Positions 26,668 to 34,577 of a stretch of 40,062 nt of DNA are shown one piece after another. Position numbers and translations under genes: made by a program. The DNA is taken from IMG/VR virus record IMGVR_UViG_2671180458_000005, one strand, 5' to 3'. The stretch is from a virus. Lineage: Duplodnaviria > Heunggongvirae > Uroviricota > Caudoviricetes. Position 1 is the stretch's first letter, and the number at the start of each line of letters is the position of its first letter. The notes under the pieces were generated by a model. The model was given only the letters and a program-made list of their open reading frames with translations. It ran no database searches and was not told the DNA's origin.

Positions 26668-26955
26668 TCAGATAGAGAAGGGAAATTGTCGGCGAGCATG
26701 TGTCACGCTTACAATCTCAATGCTTGAAGCAGCTACTCTGTACAGGATTATGTAGTTAGGGTGGGTCACTATCTCTCTCAACCCAGAAACCCGTTCGCTT
26801 GGTGGATATAGGTACGGATGCTCAGATAGAGGTAATACCGATGTTTCAATACGTATTTTAAGTCTACGCGCTGCCGGTGGGTTCTCCTTGGCGATGTAAG
26901 TTATGATCTGACGCAAATCATCGCGAGCAGATGGTAGCCATAAAATGGGCAACAT
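26668..26955 (-). CDS. ParE/RelE-family type II toxin
   Basis: 95 aa; start codon overlaps antitoxin stop by 1 nt; sequence pattern typical of ParE toxins (recalled). Confidence 0.7.
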   Translation of the reverse strand: MLPILWLPSARDDLRQIITYIAKENPPAARRLKIRIETSVLPLSEHPYLYPPSERVSGLREIVTHPNYIILYRVAASSIEIVSVTHARRQFPFSI

Positions 26956-27146
26956 TACTCGCTCCTGTTAGTTACAGCAATTTGAGCAATAAGATTTTCC
27001 ATTTCAGCTATTACCTCGTCATGTGGAATTGCAGGGCGAGGGTCTGCAAGGCTTGACGCTACTTTAGCGCGCAACCATTCGTTGTAACTGTTTTCTTGTT
27101 CGATAGTTTCGAATTCTGAAACTATCGGAGAAAGGGCTGTACTCAT
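26955..27146 (-). CDS. Small antitoxin, PaaA2-like
   Basis: 63 aa MSTALSPIVSEFETIEQENSYNEWLRAKVASSLADPRPAIPHDEV...; size and sequence resemble PaaA2 of the E. coli O157 paaR2-paaA2-parE2 module as recalled; translationally coupled to toxin. Confidence 0.6.
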   Translation of the reverse strand: MSTALSPIVSEFETIEQENSYNEWLRAKVASSLADPRPAIPHDEVIAEMENLIAQIAVTNRSE

Positions 27147-27173
27147 GGCATAACTCCTCTTCTTGTACTGTGG

Positions 27174-27575
27174 TCACGCCCGGCGGCTTTTTTGTGCCGC
27201 CAGCCACCGGGCAATGGTTTCTTCCATTGATTTTTTTTTGTCTTTGATTTCTTGAAGCATTTTTTCTTGGTCCTCCTCAGGGAACGCACTAAAAGCCTGG
27301 AGTAATTCGCGTTGGCGAGGACCAATTTTCATCGTGTTAGGGGTGAACATTTGCTCCCCCTCTTCAGGAGGCAATAAAAACCAATGCAACGGATGCCCTG
27401 TAACCTCAACCAGTTTATCCAAACTTGAGGCTTTAGGTGTAGCCTTACCGCTGACCCATTGTTGAACAGTTTGTTGTGTCACACCAATTCTACGGGCCAG
27501 CTCAGCCTGGCTCCATCCAGTTTCCTGAAGAAGCTTGCTGATTCTGTACATCGATACTTCTAGGGCGCTCATCAT
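27174..27575 (-). CDS. XRE-family HTH repressor (prophage repressor / PaaR-like regulator)
   Basis: HTH segment WSQAELARRIGVTQQTVQQWVSGK; divergent from cro-like gene across an operator palindrome; no LexA-type autocleavage motifs seen; start (MMSALE or MYRIS) uncertain, no SD. Confidence 0.7.
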   Translation of the reverse strand: MMSALEVSMYRISKLLQETGWSQAELARRIGVTQQTVQQWVSGKATPKASSLDKLVEVTGHPLHWFLLPPEEGEQMFTPNTMKIGPRQRELLQAFSAFPEEDQEKMLQEIKDKKKSMEETIARWLAAQKSRRA

Positions 27576-27611
27576 TATTCAATTTTACAGGTAAATACTG
27601 TTAAAAGCATC

Positions 27612-27650
27612 ACAATAAAAAACTGTTGATCGCGTACAGTTTTTTATTGT
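27612..27650. promoter_or_regulatory. Operator palindrome (OR-like) between divergent repressor and cro-like genes
   Basis: ACAATAAAAAACTGT-TGATCGCGT-ACAGTTTTTTATTGT, perfect 15-bp inverted repeat arms. Confidence 0.7.
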
Positions 27651-27683
27651 AGCCTTTGCCTATAGTTTTTAGAGGAGGGCAAA

Positions 27684-27956
27684 ATGCTAGATAGCACTCG
27701 CAAAAAAATTAGGCAGAAATACACTCAGGCTGAAATAGGTCGTTATATGGGGGGCGCTCAACAGACAGTTTGGCAATGGTTTAGCTTTGGCGTTCCCCCA
27801 AAGCAGGTAATTCCGCTATGTCAGCTAATGAAGTGGGAGGTTACCCCGCATGAAATTCGCCCAGACATTTACCCTAATCCGACCGACGGCTTACCTGTCG
27901 AGTATCAGGCTAACACACAACCAGAGGCGGGGGTGATTCATGAAAATCAAGCATGA
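27684..27956 (+). CDS. Cro-like HTH protein, YdaS family
   Basis: 90 aa; GAGGAGGG RBS; HTH with QQTVWQWF; RPDI motif as in Rac YdaS (recalled). Confidence 0.6.
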   Translation: MLDSTRKKIRQKYTQAEIGRYMGGAQQTVWQWFSFGVPPKQVIPLCQLMKWEVTPHEIRPDIYPNPTDGLPVEYQANTQPEAGVIHENQA

Positions 27957-28365
27957 ACACATCCGCATGGCAATGAATGCCTGGGCGTATCCAGACGGTG
28001 AGAAAGTTCCAGCAGCTGAAATAGCCCGGACTTATTTCGAGCTGGGGATGACGTTCCCGGAACTGTACGACGACAGCCATCCGGAAGCCCTGGCTCGTAA
28101 TACCCAGAAAATTTTCCGCTGGGTGGAGAAGGACACGTCTGATGCTGTTGAAAAAATTCAGGCGCTGTTACCGGCGATCGAAAAGGCGATGCCGCCTTTG
28201 CTGGTGGCCCGTATGCGCAGTCACAGTTCTGAATATTACCGGGAGATCGTCGAACGACGGGATCGGCTGGTGAAAGATGTGGATGATTTTGTCGCTGTAG
28301 CGATCGCCTGGGGCACCCTGACTAACAGTGGTGGTCAGCCTGGTAATGCAGTTGTTGTGCATTGA
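27940..28365 (+). CDS. YdaT-family protein
   Basis: 141 aa beginning MKIKHEHI and ending ...VVVH, resembling Rac YdaT termini as recalled; overlaps ydaS-like gene. Confidence 0.6.
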   Translation: MKIKHEHIRMAMNAWAYPDGEKVPAAEIARTYFELGMTFPELYDDSHPEALARNTQKIFRWVEKDTSDAVEKIQALLPAIEKAMPPLLVARMRSHSSEYYREIVERRDRLVKDVDDFVAVAIAWGTLTNSGGQPGNAVVVH

Positions 28366-31666: not shown

Positions 31667-31835
31667 TTTTGGTTCAACTAAATACAACGTCAGTTTTGAA
31701 GAATGGCATGAACTGTTAATGGACTATGCAGAGTTACGTGGTGGCAGTGCTGCTGATGCTGAAGCATGGCGTGATGATTATGAAGCAGGAAAAACTCCGG
31801 TCGAAGCATATTGTGATGAGTGGGGCGATGAATGA
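31659..31835 (+). CDS. Small acidic protein (hypothetical)
   Basis: 58 aa MADFGSTKYNVSFEEWHELLMDYAELRGGSAADAEAWRDDYEAGKTPVEAYCDEWGDE; overlaps both neighbours by 4-8 nt; not in ORF track. Confidence 0.5.
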   Translation: MADFGSTKYNVSFEEWHELLMDYAELRGGSAADAEAWRDDYEAGKTPVEAYCDEWGDE

Positions 31836-32347
31836 GCGAGATTAATTATCAGGAAGGGCATGAAACGGCAGGGCAGGCAAAACCAGTTGCATGGCGATAT
31901 CGCTACGTGAAAAAAGACGTTACAGACTTTCAGGGGAAGCCGTGGGCTGGTGACTGGAAATATGTACCGACAAAAGAGGATTGTAACGACAGGCCGAACT
32001 ATGAAATTCAGGCCTTATTCATCGGCCCGCCAGTCCCGGTGACATCAGAAGGACTGGTTAAAGCTGTGCGCTTTTATGAACAGGTAAAGCGTGAGAATCC
32101 GCCAGTCGAAACAGGAGCATGGAAGGATGCTGTTGACTGGGTGCTCAGAGAGGCCTGCTGTGCTGCCATTCTGGGTAAAGCCGACAATCCACCAGCATCC
32201 GGCAATCAGGTTAGCGAATTAGCAATGTGGGTTAAACGGCTGGTCAGCCAACTGAAAAAAGCGAAGCCGGACTGCAAATTACCGGATAAGGCGATGGACT
32301 ACCTGAAGCGAAACGGACTGATAAACGAGGAGGATATTTTACGATGA
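31832..32347 (+). CDS. Hypothetical protein
   Basis: 171 aa; ATGA overlap with upstream ORF; a truncated copy of its first codons lies at 31323..31372. Confidence 0.55.
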   Translation: MSEINYQEGHETAGQAKPVAWRYRYVKKDVTDFQGKPWAGDWKYVPTKEDCNDRPNYEIQALFIGPPVPVTSEGLVKAVRFYEQVKRENPPVETGAWKDAVDWVLREACCAAILGKADNPPASGNQVSELAMWVKRLVSQLKKAKPDCKLPDKAMDYLKRNGLINEEDILR

Positions 32348-32427
32348 CCTGGCCTGAAGCGTTCATAACGGTAGGAATTGCAATGGCGGTGGCGCTGGTG
32401 GTGTATTCGATTTGCCGCTGGGGATAA
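32344..32427 (+). CDS. Putative 27-aa hydrophobic membrane peptide
   Basis: MTWPEAFITVGIAMAVALVVYSICRWG; ATGA overlap with upstream gene; followed by hairpin. Confidence 0.3.
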   Translation: MTWPEAFITVGIAMAVALVVYSICRWG

Positions 32428-32439
32428 ATTGCCGAAAAA

Positions 32440-32476
32440 AGATCCCGCCACAAACATGAGCCGGGATCTTTGATTT
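32440..32476 (+). terminator. Possible intrinsic terminator
   Basis: AGATCCCG...CGGGATCT stem with 14-nt loop followed by T-rich tract. Confidence 0.4.
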
Positions 32477-32549
32477 ATATAGCCTACGAATCCGCAGTAA
32501 GAGAGGGGCAGACGGTTTATTCTAACACCGGAATGATGTGGGTAAAAGT

Positions 32550-32849
32550 TTATAAGAAATCGGTTTCATAACTTTGCCCACCATGATAGATACCGACAAT
32601 AAAGACTTTTCTGCCATCAACGGCAAAAGCAATAATCGTTCTGTGGCGGAAATGAGTTACCCGCATCCCCTGGCGAATATCATCGCGTTTATTGCCCCGA
32701 TGCGGGAATGTAGAAAACCCATCAAGATAATCAAGAAGCGCATTGGCATAATTGTCAGCAATGACGTTCCCTGCTTTCTCCGTTATATATCTGTGCAGGT
32801 TGATTATTTGTTGTTCGGCCTCAGGAGTAATGATGACTTCATATGTCAT
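32550..32849 (-). CDS. parE: ParE-family type II toxin
   Basis: 99 aa; immediately downstream of ParD-like gene on same strand. Confidence 0.7.
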   Translation of the reverse strand: MTYEVIITPEAEQQIINLHRYITEKAGNVIADNYANALLDYLDGFSTFPHRGNKRDDIRQGMRVTHFRHRTIIAFAVDGRKVFIVGIYHGGQSYETDFL

Positions 32850-32854
32850 GCAGA

Positions 32855-33112
32855 TTACTTCCCGGATCGAATCGCGGCGCGAACCTGTGAAATGGAGCGT
32901 CCGTTGTTTGGGTTTTCGCGGATAGAATCAAGAGAGGGGGCGGCTGAATGCGTTAACCACGCTTCGATTGCTTTATCGCGCTCATTCAGTGCGCGAAGCC
33001 CTTCACGAATGACCTCGCTTTCTGAAGCATAGGCACCGGAAGCCACACGGGCGCGCACCATGTCAGCCATCTCGTTAGTTAATGTAATGCTGAATTGTTG
33101 GGTTGTACGCAT
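32855..33112 (-). CDS. parD: ParD-family (RHH) antitoxin
   Basis: Start at ATG 33112 (MRTTQQFSITLTNEMADMVRARV...), GAGG upstream. Confidence 0.65.
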   Translation of the reverse strand: MRTTQQFSITLTNEMADMVRARVASGAYASESEVIREGLRALNERDKAIEAWLTHSAAPSLDSIRENPNNGRSISQVRAAIRSGK

Positions 33113-33247
33113 GGTAAACCTCACGGAGTAGGATAGAACACTATTCGATGATAGCACGCTGCCTGTTGACGACAACAGAAATCAGAGACAATATTGCCGC
33201 ACGCCAGCCTGAACAACTGGCACCTGCTGCGCCAGCAGAGACAACCG

Positions 33248-33526
33248 ATGGCGCAAGATACCAAATTACACAATTCGGATAACTCCGCCGCCCCTGCCAG
33301 CAGGCACGGGCGGCGTTCTCATGCATTCAAATCTGACTGGTTCCAGCATGACCCATGCACTGAAGAACAGGCCGAATGGCTGATCCAGTGCTACCGCAGA
33401 CGTGGTTACGAGTTTCAGAAAGATCTCAGCTTCGATCGTCGTCACTGGATAATCTCCGTCAGGCTCCCTTATTCCGAACGCCCACCGCGTCCGTCCCGCA
33501 CATTCCAGCAGCGTATCTGGAGGTAA
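33248..33526 (+). CDS. Hypothetical protein
   Basis: ORF ends 1 nt before the GTG start of the next gene; start uncertain (TTG 33194 or ATG 33248). Confidence 0.35.
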   Translation: MAQDTKLHNSDNSAAPASRHGRRSHAFKSDWFQHDPCTEEQAEWLIQCYRRRGYEFQKDLSFDRRHWIISVRLPYSERPPRPSRTFQQRIWR

Positions 33527-33527
33527 C

Positions 33528-34577
33528 GTGCGGGTATTACTTCGACCTGTTCTGGTACCGGAACTCGGGATGGTGCTCCTTAAGCCGGGCCGTGAATCAA
33601 TGTCAGCATTCCATAACGGCAGAATATTGGTGGAGCCGGAACCGAAAAACATGCGCGGTCTGCCGTCCGGAGTCGTTCCTGCCGTTCGCCAGCCGCTGGC
33701 AGAGGATAAAACATTACTGCCATTTTTCAGCGATGAGCGGGTTATTCGTGCAGCAGGTGGTGCAGGTGCACTGTCTGACTGGTTATTACGTCACGTGAAA
33801 TCCTGCCAGTGGCCACACGGCGATTATCATCACAGCGAAACCGTCATTCACCGTTACGGTACCGGCGCGATGGTGTTGTGCTGGCACTGTGACAACCAGC
33901 TGCGCGACCAGACATCAGAATCACTCGATCAACTTGCTCAGCAGAATCTGGCAGTCTGGATGATTGATGTTATACGTCACGCAATAAGCGGTACGCAGGA
34001 GAGGGAGTTATCGCTGGCCGAATTATCCTGGTGGGCGGCCTGCAATCAGGTGGTGGATGCACTACCTGAGGCAGTAGCGCGTCGTTCGCTGGGATTACCG
34101 GTGGAAAAAATCCGCTCCGTATACCGTGAGAGTGACATCGTACCGGGAGAACAGACAGCCATCAGCATACTGAAGCAGCGCACAAAAAATATTGCGCTGC
34201 CACTTCACGTCCACCAGCAACAAAATCCACCACAGAAAAAAACGGTTGTCAGTATCGCCGTTGATCCGGAGTCTCCTGAATCGTTTATGAAGCGGCCTAA
34301 ACATCGCCGTTGGGTTAATGAGAAATACACGCGCTGGGTAAAGACACAGCCGTGTGCGTGTTGTGGTAAGCCAGCTGACGATCCGCATCACCTGATTGGT
34401 CATGGTCAGGGGGGAATGGGAACAAAAGCCCACGATATTTTCACGCTACCGCTGTGTCGGGAGCATCATAACGAGCTTCATGCGGATCCGCTGGCGTTCG
34501 AAGAAAAGCATGGTTCTCAGGTTGATTTAATTTTTCGTTTTCTTGATCACGCCTTTGCAACCGGTGTGCTTGGGTAA
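33528..34577 (+). CDS. YdfU-like protein with C-terminal Cys/His HNH-like motif (DUF968-like)
   Basis: 349 aa; GTG start behind GGAGG; C-terminal CACCGKPADDPHHLIGHGQGG...LCREHHNELHADP. Confidence 0.55.
   Translation: MRVLLRPVLVPELGMVLLKPGRESMSAFHNGRILVEPEPKNMRGLPSGVVPAVRQPLAEDKTLLPFFSDERVIRAAGGAGALSDWLLRHVKSCQWPHGDYHHSETVIHRYGTGAMVLCWHCDNQLRDQTSESLDQLAQQNLAVWMIDVIRHAISGTQERELSLAELSWWAACNQVVDALPEAVARRSLGLPVEKIRSVYRESDIVPGEQTAISILKQRTKNIALPLHVHQQQNPPQKKTVVSIAVDPESPESFMKRPKHRRWVNEKYTRWVKTQPCACCGKPADDPHHLIGHGQGGMGTKAHDIFTLPLCREHHNELHADPLAFEEKHGSQVDLIFRFLDHAFATGVLG

Follow-up and report, generated by a model that had tools for sequence, protein, structure and literature searches.

A ParD–ParE cassette as a probable interchangeable cargo in a toxin–antitoxin slot of Escherichia coli prophages, bordered on the left by a likely 27-codon micro-gene

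Introduction

In the canonical ParD–ParE toxin–antitoxin (TA) systems, such as RK2 ParDE, Caulobacter ParDE1 (3kxe), Mesorhizobium ParDE3 (5ceg/6x0a), and those of P. aeruginosa (6xrw) and M. tuberculosis (ParDE1, 8c24), the antitoxin gene precedes and nearly abuts the toxin gene, the antitoxin has a ribbon-helix-helix (RHH) N-terminus, the toxin has the ParE fold, and palindromes lie in the promoter. Here, we describe a further pair of this kind, parD and parE, on the minus strand of a DNA stretch of 40,062 nucleotides from a virus of the Caudoviricetes (IMG/VR record IMGVR_UViG_2671180458_000005; this whole stretch is called the window from here on), together with the interval that the pair occupies, which we take to be a slot for exchangeable TA cargo, and a 27-codon open reading frame (ORF) on the plus strand that closes the left flank of this slot and that we call the micro-gene.

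Cargo hotspots and morons are known in temperate phages, as in the P2/P4 defence hotspots and the lambda morons, where a fixed interval with conserved flanks receives interchangeable, self-transcribed cassettes. Single-pass small membrane proteins such as KdpF, AcrZ, MgtS, and PmrR are also known, as are the type I toxins TisB, DinQ, and ShoB. In the Qin prophage of E. coli K-12, relB-relE-hokD stand immediately upstream of rem-ydfU-Q, and in 933W/Sp5 the TA cargo is hokW-sokW (PMC8621323). The three-component PaaR2-PaaA2-ParE2 architecture is known from CP-933P of E. coli O157:H7 (PMC8630535, PMC9986795).

We hold it very probable that two things meet at the locus described here, namely an autonomous ParDE moron placed in a cargo slot, and a genuine micro-gene that belongs to the left flank of that slot.

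The Slot and Its Cargo

In comparisons with sister phages carrying other cargo, homology to the window ends at 32428, one base past the stop codon of the micro-gene, and resumes at 33198, leaving a 770-bp cassette in between. These sharp breakpoints recur in at least 31 viral-contig loci with inserts of 483 to about 2700 bp. In three loci (our handles L019, L057, and L116), the left flank is 98% identical and contains the very 171-aa gene that precedes the micro-gene in the window, yet the slot is filled by a hok cassette of 483 bp. Of the 62 slots having both borders, 60 contain one or more TA modules, from four families (hok/sok, ParDE, RelE/helix-turn-helix (HTH), and Doc), a count that overstates the number of independent events, given that the IMG/VR loci from sequenced isolates are partly redundant. 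The cargo was hok only in 34 slots, ParDE in 15, hok plus Doc (Fic/Doc) in four, Doc only in one, RelE (PF06296) plus HTH in two, hok plus RelE/HTH in two, a coiled-coil/transmembrane gene only in two, and, in one slot each, hok plus ParDE, hok plus HTH, and hok plus two unknown genes. From these breakpoints and alleles we conclude that ParDE is probably one interchangeable allele of a TA hotspot, where recombination within the conserved flanks would swap one cargo for another.

The right border of the slot appears to carry a rightward promoter in nearly every allele. In the window, the −35 hexamer TTGACG (33166-33171) of a rightward promoter-like module overlaps both the −35 of parD and the palindrome around it, and the module points toward the 92-aa gene, ydfU, rusA, and Q. 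A −10 hexamer with at least a 5/6 match ends 0-8 nt before 33198 in 20 of 26 distinct insert ends, from about seven unrelated sequence classes, the background being 3.5%. The 50-nt leader that follows (33198-33247) is found in 2217 of 5426 complete E. coli genomes.

Several other arrangements of cargo were recorded. In L025, hok and ParDE stand in tandem 155-1450 nt 3′ of the micro-gene, with a lipoprotein-like minus-strand ORF between them, so cargoes can accumulate as well as replace one another. In L026 and L117, about 120-1350 nt 3′ of the micro-gene, hok is accompanied by a 97-aa and a 298-aa gene that have no match in Pfam, NCBIfam, or PADLOC, and since the slot cargo is otherwise almost exclusively TA, this pair is a candidate new TA or defence pair. 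In Salmonella enterica JAMBVK010000141.1 (L137, 2097-4300), ParDE, a HigB/HTH (HigBA) pair, and ORF6N lie between the replication genes and Rem-DUF1367-YbcO-Q, as a second TA cluster at the nin position in another genus. The ParDE subfamily of Yersinia prophages lies in the early-left region, and in phage ArgO145 the micro-gene and ParDE are found near the integrase.

The ParD–ParE Pair

The first-pass annotation of this DNA had placed an RHH-type ParD antitoxin and a ParE toxin antisense to the surrounding rightward early genes of a nin-like region, and the coordinates, the Pfam and NCBIfam scores, and Foldseek all agree with that assignment. The toxin scores 40.9 bits against PF05016 (cut-off 23) over the full length of the family (1-89/89) and matches the PHROG 5232 profile, described as ‘toxin’ (1-98/97, E=3e-43). 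The antitoxin scores 32.1 bits against PF03693 (cut-off 21) and 53.8 bits against TIGR02606 (cut-off 46.2), it matches the PHROG 6494 antitoxin profile end to end (1-85/85), including the C-terminal half, and its residues 6-51 match the solved ParD chains 3kxe, 7ycv, and 7b22. The antitoxin gene is upstream of the toxin gene with a gap of 5 nt, has its Shine-Dalgarno sequence GTGAGG at 33124-33119, and the layout is that of a type II operon, with adjacent genes, a promoter-like site and palindromes 5′ of parD, and a terminator 3′ of parE. In RefSeq, the minus-strand genes are already named ‘type II toxin-antitoxin system RelE/ParE family toxin’ (WP_000220600.1) and ‘ParD family antitoxin’ (WP_001260977.1).

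The AlphaFold2 model of the toxin has a mean pLDDT of 82.8 and the elements E4-7, H9-26, H28-46, E61-67, E71-78, and E81-89. When it was compared with the PDB by means of Foldseek, ranks 1-23 were all ParE toxins with TM-scores of 0.64-0.74, among them ParE of P. aeruginosa, Mesorhizobium, M. tuberculosis, V. cholerae, and Caulobacter, PaaA2-ParE2, PrpT, and PfiT, whereas the RNases RelE, YoeB, YafQ, and HigB ranked below them at 0.44-0.59. The toxin, therefore, models as a ParE fold, in which two N-terminal helices pack on a three-stranded sheet, and not as a RelE-type RNase, and these ParE-like structural matches, taken with the ParD-type partner, support a toxin of the gyrase-poison type, the gyrase target being predicted from the fold and the family.

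Both genes look intact and under purifying selection. An alignment of 16 full-length ParE members has no truncation and contains the conserved core FPxRGNxRDDIRxGxRxTHFRHRT, the identical lengths of 99 and 85 aa are found on more than 1000 contigs, and the differences between E. coli and Salmonella at codon positions 1/2/3 are 8/7/30 in parE and 3/1/13 in parD. With these constant lengths and third-position-biased divergence, the frameshifts or inactivating changes relative to homologues, which had been named beforehand as what would speak against a working pair, were not found. By BLAST, 328 of 5426 complete E. coli genomes contain the cassette as one unit; the ParE subfamily comprises 34 clusters from E. 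coli, Salmonella, Yersinia, Enterobacter, Erwinia, and one Desulfovibrio, and the copies examined in E. coli, Salmonella, and Yersinia are all in lambdoid prophages. A literature search found no experimental characterisation of this ParDE subfamily. In itself, the pair is an ordinary type II module, already annotated but uncharacterised.

The promoter-like site of parDE consists of a −35 TTGTCG (33175-33170), a spacer of 16 nt, and an extended −10 TGcTATCAT (33156-33148), and its −10 is kept across three genera, as TATTAT in Salmonella and TAAAAT in Yersinia. A 6-4-6 palindrome, CTGTTGtcgtCAACAG (33178-33163), spans the −35 of parD, and CTAT/ATAG half-sites at 33154-33151, 33144-33141, and 33136-33133 surround the predicted transcription start; the palindrome and half-sites are candidate ParD operators, at which ParD would bind and regulate its own synthesis.

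At the other end of the cassette, a hairpin with 15-nt arms (32438-32452 and 32457-32471) starts 10 nt past the stop codon of the micro-gene, has an A6 run on its 5′ side and TTTGATTT on its 3′ side, which give a U6 tail on the minus strand, and is part of a −18.1 kcal/mol fold of a 71-nt plus-strand region (z=−2.3). One and the same base pair of the stem changes from T-A to G-C in Salmonella L137 and from T-A to C-G in L080, which makes two independent compensatory changes. A simple terminator scan did not list this hairpin owing to its bulge. As predicted from the fold on both strands, the terminator can end the parDE transcript as well as the rightward transcript.

Just past the parE stop there is a further promoter-like site on the minus strand, TTTACC-16-TGtTAGAAT (window 32519-32546), whose RNA would be about 80 nt long, would end at the terminator at 32438, and would include the CU-rich stretch CCCCUCUCUUAC. 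The segment from the parE 3′ end to the terminator is 93% identical between E. coli and Salmonella (85% for parE). A conserved small RNA in this 3′ region was set aside, on account of G-run indels among the alleles, a conservation that is not unusual, and no match in Rfam. The idea that 32428-32550 is the relic of a deleted hok cassette was rejected too, as the comparison gave only chance matches of 9-10 nt.

The 27-Codon Micro-Gene

It had also been proposed, in the first-pass annotation, that a short hydrophobic peptide ORF next to the pair is coupled to the upstream gene and followed by a hairpin, and whether this ORF is real had been left open. The coupling and the hairpin are both borne out, with the ATG of the ORF overlapping the TGA stop codon of the 171-aa gene (ATGA), a GGAGG-type Shine-Dalgarno sequence inside the final codons of that gene, and the terminator arms described above, and the comparative evidence says that the ORF is almost certainly a real gene. 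The sample for this comparison was collected with a degenerate DNA pattern in viral contigs, which gave 126 hits, of which 113 are family members with exactly 27 codons; in 113 of these 113 loci there is a long upstream ORF whose TGA shares bases with the ATG and whose last codons carry a GGAGG-like Shine-Dalgarno sequence. The ratio pN/pS is 0.25 over all codons, the first seven of which were fixed by the search pattern, and 0.35 over the unconstrained codons 8-27, with the other frames giving 0.97-1.33. Against the virulent phage Av-05, 12 of 19.8 synonymous and 6 of 61.2 non-synonymous sites are changed, and all the replacements are hydrophobic swaps. Moreover, the length, the motif, and the start-stop overlap (TGATG or TAATG) are kept in a 63%-identical paralogue, MNWPEAFTAVGVAIAVAFILYSLFRWG, found in BP-4795 and VT1-Sakai, and in a Salmonella homologue, MSWPEAFATVGYALAVALVVYSICRWG, which follows an unrelated DUF977 gene.

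Positions M1, W3, P4, E5, A6, G11, A15, Y21, S22, and W26 are invariant, giving the pattern WPEAF...GxxxA...YS..RW, and the mean Kyte-Doolittle hydropathy of residues 6-24 is 2.38. Most likely, the peptide is a single-pass membrane micro-protein. It would probably have one span with a Trp at both membrane interfaces and lie N-out/C-in by the positive-inside rule, because E5 and R25 are its only charged residues, and the invariant G11xxxA15 packing motif suggests a helix-helix contact.

The micro-gene is present in 1613 of 5426 complete E. coli genomes (about 30%) and in 96 phage records. When a single genome of each species was scanned, the only hits were in E. coli and Shigella, apart from a 431-bp contig labelled Xanthomonas. 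The proteins encoded directly upstream of the micro-gene fall into at least 29 clusters; they are mosaic, of the Ea22/EaA/DUF551 type, and share just short C-terminal modules. On its other side, no further gene stands, in many cases, between the micro-gene and a terminator. In the window, the last ~100 nt of the 171-aa gene encode such a C-terminal module (...KPDCKLPDKAMDYLKRNGLI..EDILR), which recurs on many otherwise unlike phage genes of the Ea22/EaA/DUF551 type. We conclude from this distribution that the micro-gene probably belongs to the left flank and not to the TA cassette, with the class of the upstream gene as its constant partner; since identical micro-gene alleles precede hok or ParDE, the peptide would not be a TA component.

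Few GenBank records call the micro-gene, as a 27-aa hypothetical protein, and in the 933W reference it is present but unannotated between ST933Wp77 and sokW/hokW. No family was found in a PDB profile search with the peptide, no match in a literature search for its sequence, and no mention of it in the hokW-sokW paper (PMC8621323). The K-12 element CPS-53 has related YfdS/YfdT genes but no peptide.

Some side observations concern this ORF and its relatives. In Shigella phage POCJ13 (L135, 1501-1581) a TAG stands at codon 3 (MT*PEAF...), the only clear pseudogene among the phage records inspected. In viral contigs with a G+C content of 0.56-0.66 (L022/L096, L055, L066, and L107), ORFs of 27-34 aa start with MTWPEAF, continue with a different hydrophobic helix, and likewise overlap the stop codon of the ORF before them; either other phage groups have remote relatives of the micro-gene, or the pattern hit these ORFs by chance. 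Clustering of proteins at 90% merges the peptide with DUF551 proteins, and ParD with ParE, and given that this apparently comes from partial or read-through gene calls, membership in those two clusters should not be taken as homology. An in-frame fusion to DUF551 or a programmed frameshift was considered and rejected, since the ‘partial DUF551’ entry GGESMTWPEAF... results simply from reading the frame of the peptide from before its ATG, and the frameshift reading is also left without support, as no slippery heptamer is present.

Table 1. Positions of the features of the locus in the window.
Feature	Position	Strand	Basis
PaaR2-PaaA2-ParE2 module	26668..27575	-	profile matches, PDB 5cw7
Upstream 171-aa gene (PHROG 660)	31832..32347	+	ORF list, PHROG match
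Shine-Dalgarno GAGGAGGA, core GGAGG 32329-32333	32327..32334	+	10 nt before micro-gene ATG, inside upstream coding sequence
27-codon micro-gene, MTWPEAFITVGIAMAVALVVYSICRWG (probable)	32344..32427	+	ATGA coupling, Shine-Dalgarno, selection, conservation
Slot insert: ParDE cassette (to ~33165) and rightward promoter module (33166-33197)	32429..33197	.	homology breakpoints vs sister phages
Predicted bidirectional intrinsic terminator	32438..32471	both	fold prediction on both strands, compensatory changes
parE toxin gene, 99 aa	32550..32849	-	PF05016, PHROG 5232, AlphaFold2 model, Foldseek, third-position-biased divergence
parD antitoxin gene, 85 aa, ribbon-helix-helix N-terminus	32855..33112	-	PF03693, TIGR02606, PHROG 6494, PDB ParD chains
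parDE promoter and putative operators	33133..33178	-	promoter scan, palindrome search
Rightward promoter-like module TTGACG-18-AATATT	33166..33195	+	promoter scan; common to non-ParDE alleles L064, L088; conserved in Salmonella
Conserved right flank: leader 33198-33247, 92-aa gene 33248-33526 (PHROG 1212), YdfU/DUF968 gene 33528-34577	33198..34577	+	

Neighbourhood and Second ParE System

Chromosomal prophages that match positions 31800-33600 of the window at 100% identity are found in several strains of E. coli, many of which produce Shiga toxin. The genes for a DnaT-like O protein, P, DUF1627, DUF4406, and DUF7167 lie rightward upstream of ParDE, and those for YdfU/DUF968, RusA, and the antiterminator Q lie rightward downstream of it, so the label of a nin-like region stands, with replication genes on one side and YdfU/DUF968-RusA-Q on the other. 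The YdfU of the window is 85% identical to that of K-12, and the 92-aa gene, when considered as a homologue of Rem, was rejected on comparison. More than 1600 E. coli genomes have the leader region before this gene (33198-33262) with an identity of 99% or higher. This region has a direct repeat CGCCAGC..ACAAC at 33202 and 33230 and two hairpins (−21.1 kcal/mol, z=−2.4), and has no match among Rfam families; it may serve as an operator or as a regulatory element in the RNA.

The same phage carries a second and distinct ParE-type toxin, as had been stated in the first-pass annotation, within a PaaR2-PaaA2-ParE2 module. Here, the ParE2-type toxin (26668-26955) matches PF05016 and PDB 5cw7 (E=1e-36), the PaaA2 antitoxin (26955-27146) matches PF21217, and a PaaR2-like HTH repressor (27174-27575) lies in the immunity region, the module being divergent from the YdaS/YdaT genes (27684-28365). 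This immunity region (27174-28365) has the CP-933P-type layout, and its PaaR2-like repressor has 133 aa here vs. 166 aa in the close relative L001. The two ParE toxins give no significant BLASTP alignment and are about 20% identical, and their antitoxins come from unrelated families; for these reasons, cross-talk or cross-neutralisation between the two systems looks unlikely, and two co-resident ParE toxins with unrelated antitoxins offer a natural test case for TA insulation.

Discussion

In the explanation that we favour, ParDE would be an autonomous type II TA moron, that is, a self-contained accessory cassette, transcribed on the minus strand from its own sigma-70 promoter at about 33148-33175, with ParD as the RHH antitoxin and probable autorepressor at the promoter palindromes, and with ParE as a gyrase poison, by fold and family, and not an mRNase. 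The bidirectional terminator at 32438-32471 would end this transcript and insulate the cassette from the convergent early transcript of the phage. The slot itself would have a fixed place, after one transcription unit has ended and before the promoter of the unit that follows (92-aa gene, ydfU, rusA, and Q), sister prophages would fill it with hok/sok, RelE/HTH, Doc, or combinations of them, and ParDE would have spread by recombination in the flanks. In the lysogen, the role of ParDE would most likely be that of an addiction/stabilisation or abortive-infection module. As for the micro-peptide, it would be translated by coupling to whichever Ea22/EaA/DUF551-type gene precedes it and would most likely bind itself or a host membrane protein.

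We suggest weighing this against other ways of reading the same data. That the toxin is a RelE-type ribosome-dependent mRNA interferase instead of a gyrase poison seems to us very unlikely, even though PF05016 and the RefSeq name ‘RelE/ParE family’ are generic and do not distinguish the ParE from the RelE branch, and although the phmmer similarity to solved ParE is weak (E=0.007), given that the 23 best structural matches are ParE toxins at about 0.7, with RelE, YoeB, YafQ, and HigB behind them at about 0.45, and that the partner is a ParD-type RHH antitoxin scoring above the TIGR02606 cut-off. With respect to the micro-gene, it is highly improbable that the ORF is untranslated and conserved through a constraint at the DNA or RNA level, for instance by linking mosaic modules in recombination or by forming part of an RNA element. 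Its DNA is mostly more than 90% alike across unrelated flanks, the homology breaks exactly at the ORF ends, and the ORF is omitted by the PGAP annotation and lacks a family match, all of which would suit such a linker; but a third-position bias and a pN/pS of 0.25-0.35 solely in this frame, conservative hydrophobic replacements, and the 27-codon length, start-stop overlap, and Shine-Dalgarno sequence kept in the 63% paralogue, in Salmonella, and in a virulent phage argue for translation, Rfam has no match, and the linker and coding roles are compatible with each other.

Regarding the function of the peptide, a membrane-damaging toxin like the type I toxins TisB, DinQ, and ShoB, used for host takeover or superinfection exclusion, is an unlikely reading. 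With 27 aa, a single hydrophobic helix, and a charged C-terminal end, it does resemble such toxins, as far as their general description goes, but it has no sequence similarity to known toxin families, and where a type I toxin has its own promoter and an antisense RNA antitoxin, here the expression is coupled to the upstream gene, the promoter scan of the window found no antisense promoter in or beside the ORF, and Rfam gives no match. Hardly credible, in our opinion, is a role of the peptide as a functional third TA component, for instance as a membrane partner or modulator of ParDE or hok. It is true that hok or ParDE stand directly downstream in about 85% of the 108 loci with enough flank, that the peptide plus the terminator occur in 326 E. 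coli genomes and the cassette in 328, that the E. coli–Salmonella homology block opens exactly at the ATG of the peptide, and that the E. coli–Salmonella identity of the ORF (85.7%) is similar to that of parE (85.0%). Nonetheless, identical peptide DNA alleles precede hok, ParDE, or other cargo, and these cargoes are mechanistically unrelated (type I, ParE, RelE, and Doc) and lie in both orientations; in BP-4795, VT1-Sakai, and PhiR49_2 the peptide is followed by ordinary genes and xis-int, Av-05 has the peptide with no adjoining TA, and Yersinia has ParDE with no peptide.

Some points weigh against the two-part explanation that we prefer and should be kept in mind. The expression, toxicity, and binding ascribed to its components are deduced from sequences and models; the gyrase target is assigned from fold and family, with a best identity to a solved ParE of 24%, and the ParE subfamily is small (34 clusters), its named members are Enterobacterales save one, and it appears uncharacterised. 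For the micro-gene, PGAP calls no gene between the 171-aa gene and the toxin gene, that is, none for the 27-aa ORF, and the peptide has no match in Pfam, NCBIfam, or PADLOC and a weak one to PHROG 4612. Its sequence is absent from the supplements of one O157 Sakai ribosome-profiling study, a result that is uninformative either way. The family is limited to Escherichia, Shigella, and some Salmonella phages, and the substitution sample is shallow and partly clonal, besides the seven codons fixed by the pattern and the redundancy of the slot counts, both already given beside their figures.

A joint reading goes further, in which the state of the TA module gates transcription toward the late-gene activator Q and the micro-protein is a functional partner of the Ea22/EaA/DUF551 proteins. 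The overlap of the rightward −35 with the −35 of parD and its palindrome, at which binding of ParD or of the ParD–ParE complex would be expected, is the basis for the gating of Q, and we find the joint reading quite unlikely. If it were true, each cargo would bring or abut the promoter of the 92-aa gene, ydfU, rusA, and Q, and the slot would not be a passive gap; the micro-protein could, for example, act as a tether at the membrane or modulate a membrane protein of the host, and its gene would do more than serve as an arm for recombination in cargo exchange.

Returning to the favoured explanation, of an autonomous ParDE moron in a cargo slot and a genuine micro-gene on its left flank, the slot, whose cargo differs among phages that are near-identical in other respects, includes the classic relBE-hokD site of K-12 and can be mined for new cargo. 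The micro-gene has been widely overlooked, even in the reference Stx phages 933W and VT2-Sakai, and functional studies of the exo-xis/ea and nin regions do not include it, since standard annotation leaves it out.

Comparison with Known Systems

The ParDE of the window shares with the canonical ParD–ParE systems the near-abutting order of antitoxin and toxin, the RHH N-terminus of the antitoxin, the ParE toxin fold, and the promoter palindromes, and it differs from them in that its toxin is 12-24% identical to the solved ones and belongs to a small Enterobacterales subfamily. The CP-933P PaaR2-PaaA2-ParE2 system (PDB 5cw7) is likewise a prophage-borne ParE toxin, with a close copy at 26668-27575 of the same window; in contrast to ParDE, its PaaA2-type antitoxin (PF21217) lacks a DNA-binding domain, and its HTH regulator is a protein of its own that also acts as the immunity repressor.

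As a place for TA cargo, the slot is most like the relB-relE-hokD site of K-12 Qin, which occupies an equivalent position next to a YdfU 85% identical to that of the window, and like hokW-sokW of 933W/Sp5, where, in 933W, the micro-gene stands directly before sokW/mokW/hokW. These Qin and hok cassettes belong to other toxin families and run along the flow of the early genes, whereas the ParDE of the window runs against it, and Qin has no micro-gene in the stretch examined. With the P2/P4 hotspots and the lambda morons, the slot shares the fixed interval, the conserved flanks, and the interchangeable, self-transcribed cassettes, but its cargo is almost exclusively TA, and its borders are the stop codon of a micro-gene on the left and a promoter on the right.

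Finally, the micro-peptide resembles KdpF, AcrZ, MgtS, PmrR, TisB, DinQ, and ShoB in its size (<30-50 aa), its one hydrophobic helix, and its small-xxx-small motif, and it differs from all of them in having no sequence similarity to them, in being phage-borne, and in being always coupled to a gene of the Ea22/EaA/DUF551 type. In summary, the ParDE pair adds little on its own to what is known of these systems, the overlap of its promoter region with the rightward promoter facing the Q operon counts among the added value, and the micro-gene and the slot are modestly new.

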